Notes under the pieces: model-generated | What the model saw: the letters and a program-made list of their open reading frames with translations, nothing else | Told to the model about the DNA's origin: nothing | Databases searched by the model: none | Translations under genes and position numbers: made by a program | Origin: Candidatus Stammera capleta | GTDB taxonomy: Bacteria; Pseudomonadota; Gammaproteobacteria; Enterobacterales; Enterobacteriaceae | Length of the DNA: 64,000 nucleotides | Direction of reading: 5' to 3' | Assembly (NCBI GenBank): GCA_015134395.1 | Contig: CP043983.1 | Coordinates: forward strand, 63,426 to 127,425 | Shown here: in pieces, positions 4,981-56,574 of the stretch | How positions within the stretch are numbered: the first letter of the stretch is position 1 | How the letters are laid out: every line of letters begins with the position of its first letter

Positions 4981-6774
4981 ATGATATTTTTATATAATAA
5001 AAAAAAAGATAATATTTTTTTTAAAAGAATAAAAACTATAATTATAATTATAAGTTTTATTATACTATTTTTAATTAATCATATATATAAATTACAAATA
5101 ATTGATTTTAAATATTATTACAAATTATCAAAAAAAAATTATACTAAAATAATAACAATAATACCAAATAGAGGAATTATTTTAGATAGAAATAATATAC
5201 CATTAGTAATAAATAAAAATTATTATTATATAAATATAATAACACATAAAATTAAAAAAAATAAAAAAATAATAAATAATATAAAAAAATTTTTTTATTT
5301 ATCAAATAAAGATATAAAATATATAAAAAATAAATTTAATAAATTTAACAAATATAAAAACAAAAATATTATAATATATAAAAAATTATCTTTAAAAGAA
5401 ATAAAAAATTTTTTTAAAAATAAAAAAATTTTAAAAGGAATATTTATTAAAAATTATAAAAAAAGATTTTATATTTATAAAAATATATTTTCACATGTAA
5501 TAGGTTATGTTTCAAAAAATAAAAATAATTATATAGGTAAAACTGGAATAGAAAAATATTATGAAAATATATTATATGGAAGTAAAGGATATAAAAAAAT
5601 AGTTTTTAGTAATAAAAATAAAATATTAAATAAAACTATAATTAAAAAAAAAATATCAGGTAAAAATATAAATATAACAATAGATATTTATTTACAAAAA
5701 TATATATTTAATTTAATAAAAAATAATACTGCTGCAATAATAATAACAAATCCAAAAAATGGAGAAATATTATCATTAGTATCTACTCCTAGTTATAATC
5801 CAAATATTTTTATAAATAAAATAAATAATATAAAATATATCAAAATAAAAAAAAATAAAAATAATCCATTTTTTAATAAAATAACACAAGGATTATATCC
5901 ACCAGCATCTACAATAAAACCATATATAGCAATAGGTGCATTAAAAAAAAATATTATAAAAAAAAATTTTAATTTATTTGATCCAGGATGATGAAAATTA
6001 CCAAAATCAAAAAAAATATTTTATGATTGAAAAAAATGAGGACATAAAAAAATAAATATAACAAAATCTATAGAAGAATCTTCAGATATTTTTTATTATC
6101 AAATAACTTATAATTTAGGTATAAAAAATTTAATAAAATGAATCAAAAAATTTGGTTATGGAAAAAAAACAGGAATAGATTTACCTAATGAAAAAATAGG
6201 ATTTATATTAAATAAAAATATAAAAAAAAAAAATAAATATTTATATCAAGGAGATATTATTCCTATAGGAATAGGTCAAGGATATTTAAATGCCACTCCT
6301 ATACAAATACATAAATCATTAATAATACTTATAAATAATGGATCAATAATAAATCCTCATTTATTATTAAAAATAGAAAATAAATATATTAAAATAAAAA
6401 TTAAAAAATATATAAATAATGTAAAAAATAAATATTGAAAAATTATAAAAAAAGCAATGTATGGAGTAATACATAAAAAAAATGGGACAGCTTATAAAAA
6501 TTTTAAAGGAATAAAATATAAATTAGCTGCTAAATCAGGAACAGCACAATTATATTCTATAAATAGAAATAAAAAAAATAAAAAATATAAAAAAATAAAT
6601 TTTAAAGATCATACATTAATGAATGTTTTTTTACCATATAAAAATCCAAAATTTGCTATTACAATTATATTAGAAAATGGAGGTAATGGACTTAAAATAG
6701 GAGAAATTATGAGAAAAATAACTGATTATATAATAATAAATAAAATAGATAAATTATATGATAAAAAAAATTAA
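4981..6774 (+). CDS. mrdA: penicillin-binding protein 2 (elongasome transpeptidase)
   Basis: N-terminal TM anchor. Motifs PPASTIKPY (SxxK), ESSDIF (SxD/N), AKSGTAQ (KSGT). Track fragments 4981-5991 and 6457-6774 share one frame joined through TGA codons. Confidence 0.9.
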
Positions 6775-28617: not shown

Positions 28618-30759
28618 TTATTTATTACGTAATTTTACTATTTTTTCACAAATATTATCAGGAGTTATAACATATTTATAAAATTCCATAGAATATAAAG
28701 CACGACCTTGAGTTTGAGATCTTAAATCTGTAGCATAACCAAACATTTCACTTAAAGGTACATTACATTTAATTAATTTACTTAAATTAATATCATTAAT
28801 AGATTTAATTATACCTCTTCTTCTATTTAAATCACCCACAACATCACCCATATATTTTTCAGGAGTTTCTACTTCAACTTTCATAATTGGTTCTAATAAA
28901 GATGGTTTAGATTTTAAAAATGCTTTTTTAAAAGCTATAGAAGCAGCCATTTTAAAAGCAATTTCAGATGAATCAACATCATGATAAGATCCAAAAAATA
29001 ATCTTACTTTTATATTAGTCACTGGATAACCAGCTAATGGACCAGATTTTAATTGTTCACGAATACCTTTATCTATAGCAGATATATATTCATTAGGTAT
29101 AACTCCTCCTTTTATATCATTTATAAAATAATAACCATTTTTAGATAAACTATATTCTGAAAAATTTAAAGGATATAAATCTATAACAACATGTCCATAT
29201 TGACCTCTACCTCCTGTTTGTTTTATATATTTACCTTCAATATTTTTAGAACAATTTAATACAGTTTCTCTATAAGCAACTTCTGGTTTTCCTATATTAC
29301 AATTAACATTAAACTCTCTTTTCATTCTATCTACAATAATTTCTAAATGTAATTCACCCATACCAGAAATTATTGTTTGATTAGATTCAAGATCAAAAAA
29401 ATTTTTAAAAGAAGGATCTTCTCTAGATAATTTATATAAAGCAATACTCATTTTTTCCTGATCTAATTTAGTTTTAGGTTCTAAAGCTATTGAAATAACA
29501 GGAACAGGAAATTCAATTTTTTCTAAAATAATAGGATTATTTATATCACATAAAGTATCTCCAGTAAAAACATCTTTTAAACCAATAGCAGCTGCTATAT
29601 CACCAGCAAATACTTTTTTTATTTCTTCTTTTTTATTTGCATGCATCTGAACAATACGACCAATTCTTTCACGTTTATTTCTAGTAGAATTTAAAATTAT
29701 ATCTCCAGATTTTAAAGATCCAGAATATATTCTTAAAAATGTTAAATTTCCTACAAAAGGATCATTTACAACTTTAAAAGCTAAAGATGAAAAATTTTCA
29801 TTATCACTAATAATACGATTTATATAAACATTTTTTTTAATATCAAAACCAATTATTTTATTTAAATCTATTGGAGAAGGTAAATAATCTATAATACAAT
29901 CTAATAAACATTGAATTCCTTTATTTTTAAATGCAGAACCACAAGTAACTAATAAAATTTTATTATTTAAAACATTTTTTCTTAAAATTAATTTAATTTC
30001 TTCTATAGAATAATCAATCCCTTCAAAATATTTATTCATCATAAATTCAGATGAATCAGCTATAAATTCAATAATTTTTTGACGTCAAAAATAAGATATA
30101 TCATATATTTTACTATTTTTAGTAATATTATATATATTATATTTTAAACCTAAATTATCATTTTTTCATATTATTGATTTAAAATTAATTAAATCTACTA
30201 ATCCACAAAAATTATTTTCTAAACCTATAGGTATTTGTATAGGTAAAACTTTAATACAAAATTTTTTTTTTAAATCATCAATAATATTAAAAAAATTAGA
30301 ACCAACCCTATCCATTTTATTTATAAAAGCTATACGAGGAACATTATATTTATTTACTTGTTTCCAAACAGTTTCTGATTGAGGTTGTACTCCTCCAACA
30401 GAACAATAAACCATAACAGCTCCATCTAATACTCTCATAGATCTTTCTACTTCTATAGTAAAATCAACATGACCTGGAGTATCTATAATATTAATTCTAT
30501 AAGGATCTTTAAATTGTTTAAACATACCAGATCAAAAAGCTGTTGTAGCTGCAGATGTTATAGTTATACCTCTTTCTTGTTCTTGTTCCATTCAATCCAT
30601 AGTAGCTGTACCTTTATGAACTTCACCTAATTTATAATTAACACCAGTATAAAATAAAATACGTTCAGTAAGAGTAGTTTTACCAGCATCAATATGAGCA
30701 CTTATACCAATATTTCTATAATTAAATATAGATGTTTTACGTGATATTATATTATTCAT
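28618..30759 (-). CDS. fusA: elongation factor G
   Basis: Track fragments 28618-30042 and 30166-30525 plus the N-terminal part (..[20 protein letters not shown]..) share one frame joined by TGA codons. 713 aa. Confidence 0.96.
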
Positions 30760-32078: not shown

Positions 32079-32164
32079 GCCCTAGTGGTGGAATAGGTAG
32101 ACACAAGGGACTTAAAATCCCTCGATTAAATAAAATCATGCGGGTTCGAATCCCGCCTTGGGTA
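32079..32164 (+). tRNA. leuZ: tRNA-Leu (UAA), long variable arm
   Basis: GCCCTAG TGGTGGAATAGGTAGACAC AAGGGA-CTTAAAA-TCCCT ... GCGGGTTCGAATCCCGC CTTGGGT A parallels E. coli tRNA-Leu(UAA). G1/U72 and U5/U68 are non-Watson-Crick pairs. No CCA. Confidence 0.88.
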
Positions 32165-44723: not shown

Positions 44724-45092
44724 AAATAATCCTATTATTAATAAATATAATATTAAATTATAAATAATTTAAAATATAAAAATATTATTAATAATTAAAA
44801 TAAAAACATAATCAATTATTTAATTATAATAAATTAATGTATAAATTATAAAAACCTTAAAATAAATTATTATACTATATATATAAATAATAAAATAAAT
44901 ATTTATTATATTATTTTATATTAATAAATATAAATATTAATATAAATTAATAAATATAATTTTATAAATTTAATATATATTATTATTAAATAAATAAATA
45001 ATAAATATTTTATTAATATTAAAATATATAATATAAATTATTATTATTAATTTAAATATAATTATTAATAATATTATAATATTATAAATAAA

Positions 45093-47378: not shown

Positions 47379-47852
47379 ATAAAATTAAAATTATTAATTA
47401 AATAAAAATTATTAAATATTAATTAAATAAATAAAACATAAAATTAAAATAATAACTATACTATAATATATATTATATATATAAATTAAAATTTTAATAA
47501 AATTATAAATAAATATTAAATTAATAATATTAAATAAAATTTAAAGTTAAAAATTAAATTATTTATATATTTACTAAAATTATTTAATAAATTTTAATAT
47601 TTAATATATAAATTATAAATAAATATAATTAAAATTAATTAATTTATATTTATATTTAATATAAAATAAATATAAATATAATATTAATATAATTCTAAAT
47701 AAAAATATTTAAATAAAATATTTAGATAAATTTATTTAATAAATAAATTATAAAATAAATAAACTTAATAAAAATAAAATTTATTATATAATTTAATTTT
47801 AATTAATAAAATTTAATATTAAATATATAAATAAATATAATATAATAATATT

Positions 47853-52795: not shown

Positions 52796-53071
52796 ATGTA
52801 TAAAATATTTTCAATAATATTTTTATTTATTTGTATAATTTTAATAACTATAATAATATCTACACCTAGTAAAAATAATATTATAGGTGCATCTATAAAT
52901 ACAGATAATACAATTATTACATCAAAATTTTTTAAAAATACATTAAATTCAATTATTATAATATTTGCTATATTATTTTATTCAGTAGCATTAATATTAA
53001 ATTTAATACATAATAATAAAATTAATAAATTATATAATCAAAAATATATTAAAATATTTAAAAATAAATAA
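52796..53071 (+). CDS. secG: preprotein translocase subunit SecG
   Basis: 91-aa two-TM protein starting MY... Sits directly upstream of a tRNA-Leu, as with E. coli secG-leuU. Sequence similarity alone is weak. Confidence 0.65.
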   Translation: MYKIFSIIFLFICIILITIIISTPSKNNIIGASINTDNTIITSKFFKNTLNSIIIIFAILFYSVALILNLIHNNKINKLYNQKYIKIFKNK

Positions 53072-53092
53072 ATTTATATTAAACCGAGATGG

Positions 53093-53163
53093 TGAAAAGG
53101 TAAACACGCTACTTTAAGATAGTAGTTTTATTTAAATTGCGGGTTCGAATCCCGCTCTCGGCA
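53093..53163 (+). tRNA. leuU: tRNA-Leu with anticodon AAG (leuU position), long variable arm
   Basis: ACCGAGA TGGTGAAAAGGTAAACAC G CTACT-TTAAGAT-AGTAG TTTTATTTAAATT GCGGG-TTCGAAT-CCCGC TCTCGGC A. The perfect 5-bp anticodon stem fixes the 7-nt loop, so positions 34-36 are AAG. A1 is opposite C72. No CCA. Confidence 0.8.
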
Positions 53164-53316
53164 AAATATATTCTTCAACTATAATATTAAATAAATTTCT
53201 ATATTTAATATCTCTAATATATAATAAATACATTTAAATAATCATTAATAAATAATATTTATAAATATATCTTTAATAAATAAATACCTTATATATTTTA
53301 ATTGAGGCATATTAAA

Positions 53317-54360
53317 ATGAATAAAGATATTTTAATAATGACAGAAGCTGTATCAAATAAAAAATCCTTACCAAAAGAAATAATATTTAAAGTATTAGAA
53401 AATGCATTAACTATAGTAATAAATAAAAAATATAAAAAAAAAATAGATATAAAAATAAATATAAATAGAAAAAATGGAAAATTTTATATATATAGAAGAT
53501 GAATTGTAGTAAAAAAAGTTAAAAAACCTAATATAGAAATAAATATTAATGAAGCCATTAATAAAAATAAAAAAATAAAAATTGGAGATTTTATAAAAAA
53601 TAAAATAAAAAAAATAAATTTTGATAGAATAACTACACAAAAAGCAAAAAAAATTATAATAAAAAAAATAAAAGAAGAAAAAAAAAAAATCATTTTAAAA
53701 AAAATAAAACAAAGAAAAGGACAAATTATTACAGGATTTATAAAAAAATTATATAAAAATTATTCAATAATAGATATAGGAAATGATATAGAAATAAAAT
53801 TATTAAAAAAAGATATGCTTTTAAATGAAAAATTAAAAATAGGAAAAAAAATCAAAGGAGTTATATATAATATAAAAAAATATAATAATGAATATGAAAT
53901 ATTAATTACTAGATCACAAATAATAATGATAAAAGAATTATTAAAAATAGAGATACCAGAAATAAAAAAAAAAATCATAAAAATAAAATCTATATCACGT
54001 AAACCAGGTTTAAGATCAAAAATAGCTGTAATAAGTAAAGATAAACGTATAGATGCTATAGGTGCATGTATTGGTATAAAAGGTTCTAGAATAAAAGCAA
54101 TATCTAATGAATTATCTGGAGAAAAAATAGATATAATTTTATGAAATAAAAATATTAAAAAATTCATAATTAATACTTTACTACCAATAATAATATATAA
54201 TATATCAATAAATTATAAAAAAAAAATTATAAATATAAGTATAGAAACAAAAAATTTAGCTCAAATTATAGGAAAAAATGGACAAAATATAAAATTAATA
54301 TCTAAATTAATTGGATGAGAAATAAATGTAATAAGTATAAAAAATATAAAAATAACTTAA
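53317..54360 (+). CDS. nusA: transcription termination/antitermination factor NusA (lacks the enterobacterial C-terminal acidic repeats)
   Basis: MNKDILIMTEAVSNKKSLPKEIIFKVLE parallels E. coli [28 protein letters not shown]. Also ..RIDAIGACIGIKGSRIKAIS.EL.GEKIDII.W.. and ..IGKNGQNIKLIS.L.GWEINV. 347 aa against 495 in E. coli. Confidence 0.93.
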
Positions 54361-54378
54361 ATAATTATTAATAAATAT

Positions 54379-56170
54379 ATGTTAATAAAAAAAAAAAATT
54401 ATAATATAAAAAATAATATAAATAAATTTAAAAAAAAAAATAAAATATTAAATAAAAAATACTATAAAAAAAAAATAAAAAAAAATATATTTAAAAAAAA
54501 AAAAAATATTAGATTTTTTAAAAATAAAATAAATAAAAATATTAAAAAAAATAAAATAAATAAAAATATTAAAAAAAAATAAAATAAATAAAAATATTAA
54601 AAAAAATAAAATAAATAAAAATATTAAAAAAAACAAAAACTTTATATTAAAATATAAAAATATATTAAAAAAATTATTTTTATTAAAAAAAAAAAAACAA
54701 TATATAAGAGCACCAATTATAACAATAATGGGACATGTAAATCATGGAAAAACATCATTAATTGATTGTATAAAAAATACTAAATTAGTAGATAAAGAAA
54801 AAGGAAATATAACTCAAAATATAAATGCATATTATATTAATAATAAATATGAAAAATTAACAATAATAGATACTCCAGGACATTCTATATTTTCAGATAT
54901 GAGAATAATTGGAATTAATATTACAGATATTATTATATTAATAATTGCAATAGATGATGGAATAATGAAAGAAACTAAAGAAATAATAAATTATTCAAAA
55001 AAATATAATATACCAATAATAATAGTTTTAAATAAAATAGATAAAAAAGAATATATTAATAATATAGAAAAAATTAAAAAAAAAATATATAAATATAATA
55101 TTATTAACAATAAATTAAATAAAAATAATATTTTTATAAAAATATCTACAAAATTAAAAATTGGTATAGATAAATTAATAAAAAATATATCATTAAAAAA
55201 AAAAAAACTAAAACTTAAAGTAAATTTAAATACTATAACATCAGGAATAATATTAGAATCTAAAAAAGATAAAAAAAGAGGAATATTAACATATTTAATA
55301 ATAAAGAAAGGAATATTAAAAACAAATGATATTATATTATGTAATAATAAATATGGAAAAATAAAAGCAATATTTAATGATATAAATAAAAAAATAAATT
55401 ATGCTTTACCATCAATGCCAGTAAAAATTTTAGGATTAAAATATATATCCCCTTCAGGAAATAAATTTACTATTATAAATAACATTAAAATAGTTAAAAA
55501 AATAATTGAGTATAAAAATAAAAATAAAAATAAAATAATAAAAAATAATAATAATAATTATAATATAAATTTTTTTAATAATAAAAAAAATAAATTAAAT
55601 ATAATAATAAAAACAAATTCTTATGGATCTATTAATACTATAGATAAAATAATTAAAAAAAATTTTAATAATATAAAAATAATATCTTCAAATATTGGAG
55701 ATATTAATAAAACAGATATAACATTAGCAAATATAAGTAAATCTGTAATAATAGCTTATAATGTAAAAATTGAAAACTCAATAAAAAAATATATATATAT
55801 ATATAAAAACAAAATATATTTTTTTGAAATAATACATAAAATATTTAATAAATTAAAAAAAATAATAGAAAAAAATAATATTAATAAATTAAATATAAAA
55901 ATAACAGGTAAAGCAATAATAAAAAATATATTTAAATTATCTAAATCAAAATATATAGCTGGATGTAAAATTATAAATGGTTATATTAAAAATAATAATA
56001 GTATAAAAATAATAAGAAATAATAAAATTATTTGTAATAGTAAAATAAAATCTTTAAAAAGATTTAAAAAACAAATAAATATAGCTAAAAAAAATACAGA
56101 ATGTGGTATTATTATAAAAAATTTTTCAAAAATAAAAATTGGAGATATAATAGAATCTATAAATAATTAA
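54379..56170 (+). CDS. infB: translation initiation factor IF-2, interrupted by a +1 frameshift in an A9 tract (54571-54579)
   Basis: The Lys/Asn-rich N-terminal ORF (frame 1, 54379-54582) and the GTPase/C-terminal ORF (frame 2; ..YIRAPIITIMGHVNHGKTSL.., DTPGH, NKID) are separated by one extra A. Total length is 3n+1. Confidence 0.85.
54523..54631 (+). repeat. 4 tandem 27-nt coding repeats (AATAAAATAAATAAAAATATTAAAAAA = NKINKNIKK), second copy 28 nt
   Basis: The T positions repeat at spacings of 27, 28 and 27 nt. A-runs between units are 8, 9, 8 and 8 long. Confidence 0.9.
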
Positions 56171-56545: not shown

Positions 56546-56574
56546 AATAATTAAATATAATTAAAAGGATAAAA

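Follow-up and report, generated by a model that had tools for sequence, protein, structure and literature searches.

A secG-linked tRNA-Leu gene of Candidatus Stammera with a derived, lineage-specific A34 (AAG) anticodon

The window analysed here is a 64-kb stretch of a 281,294-bp chromosome of Candidatus Stammera. Stammera lives in cassidine leaf beetles as a pectinolytic symbiont, and its published genomes measure 216-341 kb, with a GC content of 14-20% and genetic code 4 (10.1101/2023.12.12.571295). Outside the rRNA operon the GC content of the window is 12-22%, and the nearest relatives of its EF-Tu and FtsH lie on contigs of 245-326 kb (e.g., CP144808, CP062308 and CP043980). Composition, genetic code and an affinity to Enterobacterales all agree with Stammera. 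ARAGORN detected nine tRNA/tmRNA genes in the window, among them tRNA-Leu(aag), which stands in the local gene order rlmE-ftsH-secG-tRNA-nusA-infB-rbfA (Table 1). In fusA (28618-30759) in-frame TGA codons occupy positions of conserved EF-G tryptophans, and the window as a whole contains about 110 in-frame TGA codons and 5-6 TGG codons. These observations indicate that UGA is read as Trp, in keeping with the known use of code 4 in Stammera.

Table 1. Features of the tRNA-Leu(AAG) locus and of the second leucine tRNA gene discussed in the text; positions are those of the window.
Feature	Position	Strand	Basis or remark
tRNA-Leu(UAA)	32079..32164	+	ARAGORN; reader of UUA/UUG, about 96% of the leucine codons of the window
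secG	52796..53071	+	stop codon 11 nt before the tRNA gene; Pfam SecG in relatives
tRNA-Leu(AAG), class II, 81 nt	53083..53163	+	ARAGORN, Rfam RF00005, synteny and alignment with ten Stammera genomes and E. coli
A1	53083	+	opposite C72 (53162); only non-standard pair of the cloverleaf
Anticodon arm CUACU[UUAAGAU]AGUAG	53109..53125	+	stem 53109-53113 / 53121-53125
Anticodon A34-A35-G36	53116..53118	+	direct reading; A34 = 53116
C72 and discriminator A73	53162..53163	+	direct reading, ortholog alignment
nusA, 347 aa (code 4)	53317..54360	+	downstream neighbour; Pfam NusA domains in relatives

From its 5' end the tRNA reads ACCGAGA-UG-GUG-AAAAGGUAAA-CAC-G-CUACU-[UUAAGAU]-AGUAG, and after the anticodon arm it continues with UUUUAUUUAAAUU-GCGGG-UUCGAAU-CCCGC-UCUCGGC-A. 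A sequence-only reading of this DNA had described a perfect anticodon stem, a loop TTAAGAT and hence the anticodon AAG; direct reading, ARAGORN and Rfam all bear this out, the stem being a perfect 5-bp helix. The same reading had placed the start of the gene at 53093, which is 10 nt too far in. In the search of the whole window the gene scored 52.9 bits with RF00005 (gathering score 29, E = 1.6e-8). A better-scoring alternative fold would have spoken against the AAG anticodon, and it was sought with Rfam and with free-energy folding; no alternative fold and no other RNA family outscored the tRNA model for 53083-53163. The thermodynamic fold retains the anticodon hairpin, the acceptor stem and the T arm (z = -2.7). 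In the Rfam alignment only the 1:72 pair is flagged, in agreement with the A1/C72 mismatch noticed earlier, whereas standard pairing holds for the other 20 stem pairs, and both the T arm and G18G19 are preserved. The variable region comprises 13 nt, and the variable arm consists of A and U throughout. In E. coli the discriminator base A73 belongs to the leucine identity elements. The 3' CCA is unencoded in the leuU orthologs of Stammera, including the gene of the window (53164-53170), whereas E. coli leuU encodes it. Thus, maturation of the Stammera tRNAs must depend on a CCA-adding enzyme, as it does for the many tRNAs of Buchnera that likewise lack an encoded CCA (PMC3439896).

Several further features of the window concern its other genes. 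The site between rpsF and rpsI (44724-45092), which is the mutS locus in most relatives, is a 370-nt spacer composed only of A and T, and no match to mutS was found anywhere in the window. A MutS of 812-857 aa is kept between rpsF and rpsI in the relatives L007 and L009-L013 and is gone in L006. The loss of mutS may be the cause of the faster, transition-rich divergence of the window lineage. The gene truB, encoding tRNA pseudouridine-55 synthase, is missing between rbfA and gpmA (56546-56574) and had no match elsewhere in the window; at the rbfA-gpmA site it is present in L009-L013 and absent from L006 and L007, and this T-loop modification enzyme appears to have been lost in some Stammera lineages. 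In place of mreC and mreD, a gap of 475 nt (47379-47852) separates a tldD-like gene from mreB, and mreC gave no match in the window; the two genes are also missing in L010, L011 and L013 and are present in L006, L007 and L012. Downstream of nusA, the nusA-infB spacer (54358-54697) is filled by a degenerate A/T tandem array with periods of 27 and 55, and, ahead of the first ATG (54728), the IF2 frame carries on through K/N-rich repeats in which the frame changes. Counted from this ATG, infB encodes about 480 aa in comparison to 505-653 aa in relatives, which may reflect loss of the N-terminal part, initiation at a non-ATG codon or slippage in the repeats.

The origin of the AAG anticodon was addressed by comparing the secG-tRNA locus in ten other Stammera genomes, picked across an FtsH tree. 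The secG-tRNA arrangement is common to the window, to these ten genomes and to E. coli, and the anticodon at this locus is GAG in 10 out of 10 of the other Stammera genomes and in E. coli. In the neighbour-joining tree of FtsH, the outgroups of which were Buchnera, Blochmannia, Wigglesworthia, a Donacia symbiont and Erwinia haradaeae, the window lineage is nested within Stammera and flanked on either side by lineages with GAG. This implies that A34 is a derived state that arose by a single G-to-A transition. The loops of L014 and L015 (UUGAGAU) differ from that of the window (UUAAGAU) only at position 34.

The gene had been assigned to the leuU position downstream of secG, with an E. coli homolog carrying GAG and G1, and the E. 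coli genomes confirm this assignment. There, leuU lies 14 nt after secG, has the anticodon GAG and G1 opposite U72, and is 100% identical in sequence across E. coli genomes. Both genes belong to class II, carry A73 and follow the secG stop codon after a short spacer; C27, U28, A29, C30, U41, A42 and G43 of the anticodon stem and the T arm are conserved between them. E. coli leuU has G34, G37, the G1.U72 pair and an encoded CCA, whereas the gene of the window has A34, A37, A1.C72, no CCA, a D-loop shorter by 1 nt and an all-A/U variable arm. Transitions can account for the substitutions at 34, 37 and 72 alike (G34A, G37A and probably U72C).

The departures from the orthologs raise an alternative in which the gene is a dispensable copy heading for loss, with A34, A37, the D-loop and A1/C72 as damage, or in which the A of the anticodon is an assembly or sequencing error. 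The gene has the lowest score of all tRNAs in the window, its D-loop lacks 1 nt relative to every ortholog, and its 1:72 pair is mismatched. The missing mutS would fit decay as well, and a tRNA-Leu(UAG) with unmodified U34, if present, could read all four CUN codons by superwobble and make the gene redundant (PMC3439896). However, the orthologs score 54.1-60.6 bits, i.e., 1.2-7.7 bits above the gene of the window, which therefore lies only 1.2 bits under the lowest-scoring ortholog (L011, 54.1 bits) and far above the threshold. The standard state of the other stem pairs, together with the intact T arm and G18G19, also speaks against decay, as does the finding that A37 and 1:72 mismatches occur in orthologs that retain GAG. 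Moreover, the secG-linked tRNA-Leu is kept in 11 out of 11 Stammera genomes spanning the FtsH tree, and the origin of the clade reportedly dates to the Paleocene (10.1101/2023.12.12.571295). The base call at 53116 comes from one assembly of this lineage, but in a sequence that is otherwise lineage-specific, a mistake is unlikely to have fallen precisely on the wobble base. We therefore consider decay or error quite improbable. The reading of the gene as a tRNA pseudogene was rejected on score and pairing and on its retention in all 11 genomes. With a score close to that of its orthologs, a single mismatched pair and retention throughout the genus sample, we conclude that the tRNA-Leu(AAG) gene is predicted to be functional and not decaying.

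The 1:72 pair was examined in the 11 Stammera orthologs in the homologous register; for L007, L014 and L016, ARAGORN places the acceptor stem one base out of this register. The pair is A-U in five orthologs, G.U in two, A.G in two, C-G in one and A.C in one, the last being the gene of the window; the A1.G72 mismatches are those of L011 (12079-12162) and L015 (5206-5290). To judge from these sequences, the terminal acceptor pair is weakly constrained across Stammera. A1 is present in 8 of the 11 orthologs, mostly paired with U72, and as it is the common state of the genus, the mismatch in the window stems from C72. This weakens the earlier view of A1 as a mark of erosion under AT pressure; if the ancestor had A1-U72, the change to C72 even goes against AT pressure. 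At position 37, A (53119 in the window) is shared by the window, L013, L014 and L015, i.e., by 4 of the 11 orthologs, and most of the orthologs have G37. The m1G37 modification introduced by TrmD is usual for CUN-reading tRNA-Leu, and it is impossible on the four tRNAs with A37.

We next considered the leucine codons that the tRNA could serve. Among about 17,600 codons of the window, counted with code 4 after removal of spurious ORFs over the rRNA genes, leucine is encoded by TTA 1511 times, TTG 33 times, CTT 53 times and CTA 18 times, and CTC and CTG do not occur; the hand-curated gene list gave 50 CTT, 16 CTA, no CTC and no CTG. Thus, CUN codons make up 0.4% of the codons of the window. In seven GAG-bearing relatives (about 42,600 codons) we counted 182 CTT, 165 CTA, 10 CTC and 5 CTG codons, and opposite the CTC codons of the relatives the window has TTA or ATT. 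The CTA codons noted before in mnmA and infB and the CTT codons in ileS were all found. In rpsL, rpsJ, rplO, ftsH, rlmE and the tldD-like gene, CTA codons of the window fall on sites where Leu is conserved throughout the relatives, which indicates that CUA is still read as leucine. In the ftsH region the CTT:CTA ratio was 18:7 in the window and 182:165 in the relatives (P = 0.064), and the share of CUN was about half that of the relatives (0.47% versus 0.85%). In the ribosomal-protein region the ratios did not differ between the window and the relatives (22:8 versus 18:8). A shift in codon usage was therefore rejected as proof of changed CUA decoding, being a trend in the first region and absent from the second. 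Instead of plain AT bias, the higher CTT:CTA ratio and the rarer CUN codons could reflect a change in how CUA is decoded.

G34 does not read codon-final A, and the sole gain of G34 over A34 is the reading of CUC. Since CUC is absent from the codons of the window, the special role of G34 is gone. At the same time, the relatives with G34 use CUA about as often as CUU, and as G34 cannot read A, the genus must possess a separate reader of CUA. This reader is probably a tRNA-Leu(UAG) encoded outside the window. ARAGORN found no gene for a GAG tRNA-Leu in the 64 kb of the window (64 of 281 kb). Buchnera retains the Leu tRNAs with GAG, UAG and UAA anticodons, and the family boxes of reduced genomes lose anticodons of the GNN type earlier than those of the UNN type (PMC3439896). 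The sequence-only reading had left three options, namely another CUN-reading tRNA, deamination of A34 to I34 or unusually relaxed decoding; this frame was right, and the CUA use of the relatives favours the first of them.

Taken together, these observations suggest that the gene is probably a functional, lineage-specific G34-to-A34 ortholog of leuU with mostly unmodified A34, working beside a separate reader of CUA. Extreme AT mutation pressure, with mutS gone from its syntenic site, would have led to the disappearance of CUC and CUG. Since G34 was needed solely for CUC, the G-to-A transition at position 34 would then have become tolerable. The tRNA with A34 would read CUU by a Watson-Crick A34:U pair, and CUA, which persists at conserved Leu sites of essential genes, would be read by tRNA-Leu(UAG) encoded outside the window. 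We infer that this genome encodes tRNA-Leu(UAG) and that most molecules of tRNA-Leu(AAG) carry A34 rather than I34. The loss of mismatch repair and the AT pressure form a plausible background for the drift of the anticodon after CUC had vanished. A G34-to-A34 change in a tRNA of a GNN family box is reportedly tolerated in the Salmonella proL G34A mutant of Chen et al. from 2002.

The separate reader of CUA could be dispensed with if unmodified A34 alone decoded the whole CUN box by undiscriminating or two-out-of-three reading after the loss of tRNA-Leu(UAG). Stammera genomes have a minimal set of 28-31 tRNA genes (10.1101/2023.12.12.571295) and CUN codons are rare in the window, which would fit such a loss, and reading of whole boxes by unmodified A34 has been proposed for Mycoplasma tRNA-Thr(AGU) and yeast mitochondrial tRNA-Arg(ACG) (PMC11066159). 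However, an unmodified AAG anticodon in E. coli read CUU (4.3%) and CUC (1.5%) in vivo, and reading of CUA and CUG was not detectable (PMC11066159), whereas CTA persists in the window at conserved Leu sites of rpsL, rpsJ and ftsH. In addition, Stammera genomes of similar size have 29-30 tRNAs and thus do not fall below the modal number of 29 (10.1101/2023.12.12.571295). We regard decoding of the whole box by A34 as highly improbable, and a CUU reader accompanied by tRNA-Leu(UAG) remains the reading that we prefer.

A34 in bacteria had been described as normally confined to tRNA-Arg(ACG), which is contradicted by Streptococcus, Lactobacillaceae and Oenococcus (PMC13249217, PMC11472039) and by metagenome cases. 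According to a GtRNAdb survey, nearly all bacterial tRNA-Leu(AAG) genes are found in Bacilli (PMC13249217). As at the secG-linked locus of the window, a CUY-reading tRNA-Leu with encoded A34 stands in for the GAG gene in the Lactobacillales type, and the genomes are likewise AT-rich and encode Leu mainly by UUA; they also have a separate tRNA-Leu(UAG), such as is predicted for Stammera (PMC13249217, PMC11472039). The Lactobacillales type differs in that A34 is family-wide, I34 editing has been shown and the use of CUU and CUC is raised (PMC13249217, PMC11472039), whereas the Stammera case concerns a single lineage of a gammaproteobacterial symbiont in which CUC is absent from the window and CUN is rare. 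The gene of the window also shares A34 in a family box with Mycoplasma tRNA-Thr(AGU), yeast mitochondrial tRNA-Arg(ACG) and an orthogonal E. coli tRNA(AAG), for which the decoding or modification states were measured (PMC11066159). Buchnera is a reduced enterobacterial symbiont with single-copy tRNAs like Stammera, and it retains TadA and I34 on tRNA-Arg(ACG), but it differs in having kept G34 in tRNA-Leu(GAG) and the standard genetic code (PMC3439896). We found no discussion of an A34 tRNA-Leu in Stammera or other gammaproteobacterial symbionts in the searched literature on Stammera and on tRNA inosine.

Metagenomes were scanned with a pattern combining a leuU-like D-arm and an anticodon arm with AAG. 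The pattern matched 13 contigs, and tRNA-Leu(aag) was present in 12 of them, which indicates that the G34-to-A34 switch in leuU-type tRNAs is rare but recurrent. Two JGI metagenome contigs of uncultured bacteria, L019 (3110-3195; 61% GC) and L021 (1649-1734; 42% GC), carry a secG-linked tRNA-Leu(AAG). CUC is a major codon on L019 (50/1661), and its coexistence with the AAG anticodon suggests I34 outside the Bacilli, unless another CUC-reading tRNA is encoded elsewhere in that genome. The JGI contig Ga0307987_1005411 (L027), from a reduced genome with 20% GC, has tRNA-Leu(AAG) at 5361-5449, adjoining prfA and alaS. Its codons (CTC 0, CTT 12, CTA 8) follow the pattern of the window, and it is possibly a parallel case of the change from G34 to A34 under AT pressure.

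These cases raise the question whether the A34 of the window is deaminated. If the symbiont TadA converted it to I34, the resulting tRNA-Leu(IAG) would read CUU, CUC and CUA, and this may have made tRNA-Leu(UAG) dispensable. Full editing of tRNA-Leu(AAG) to IAG is documented in S. pyogenes, S. mutans and O. oeni (PMC11472039, PMC13249217), where the editing TadA has a broadened specificity with the loop consensus YUAMGRA (PMC11472039). The loop of the window, UUAAGAU, fits this consensus at six of seven positions, the exception being position 38, which is U and not the A of the Lactobacillales type. U33, G36 and A37 are also common to the loop of the window and the TadA substrate loop YUACGAA. 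However, TadA of the E. coli type is strict and does not edit the streptococcal tRNA-Leu(AAG) (PMC11472039). When AAG was placed in the tRNA-Arg2 loop of an orthogonal tRNA, about 15% was edited in E. coli; A37G abolished the editing, and each tested change at positions 32, 37 or 38 blocked the editing of AAG or AUG anticodons (PMC11066159). The loop of the window has A37, like tRNA-Arg(ACG), but U32 and U38 in place of C and A, so a TadA of the enterobacterial type might edit it weakly or not at all. Partial deamination of A34 to I34 is possible.

As to the enzyme itself, tblastn of the window with E. coli TadA as the query gave only a chance match (E = 2.4), and the Pfam domain lists of 11 relative loci contain no deaminase. 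In the relatives CGT makes up 94-97% of the CGN box, and rare CGA codons stand at invariant Arg positions of MreB, GrpE, FtsH and NusA; the dominance of CGU together with these CGA codons suggests an I34 tRNA-Arg(ACG), and hence TadA, in the genus. The share of CTA below that of the relatives is likewise what would be expected from weak I:A reading of CUA, and L019 shows the AAG anticodon together with abundant CUC. On the other hand, CUC, the codon with the most to gain from I34, is absent from the window, and the use of CUU and CUC is not raised over that of the GAG-bearing relatives (no CUC, and the halved CUN share of the ftsH region). The AAG anticodon is also a single autapomorphy with no sign of co-evolution of the enzyme. 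Considering this evidence, we find it rather unlikely that I34 on this tRNA has taken over the reading of CUU, CUC and CUA. That a Stammera TadA of the enterobacterial type edits tRNA-Leu(AAG) to IAG, helped by an A37 already gained in several Stammera lineages and by a loosened specificity of a degenerate enzyme, appears unlikely as well. If it does, wobble inosine would have expanded outside the Bacilli independently and very recently, the present state being a single mutation past its origin; a minimal genome could then cover CUU, CUC and CUA with one tRNA.

Bacteria rarely carry A34 in tRNAs other than tRNA-Arg, and whether it is edited decides which codons can be read. The gene described here lies one transition away from ten sister genomes with G34 and thus offers a clean natural experiment on two questions: whether an anticodon can follow the extinction of its codon under AT pressure, and whether a TadA of the enterobacterial type accepts a leucine substrate. 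It is also a warning for the annotation of tiny genomes that codon-reading tables are not transferable from relatives. If tRNA-Leu(AAG) is an unmodified reader of CUU beside tRNA-Leu(UAG), as we favour, it would represent a tidy, modest case of the co-evolution of tRNAs and codons.
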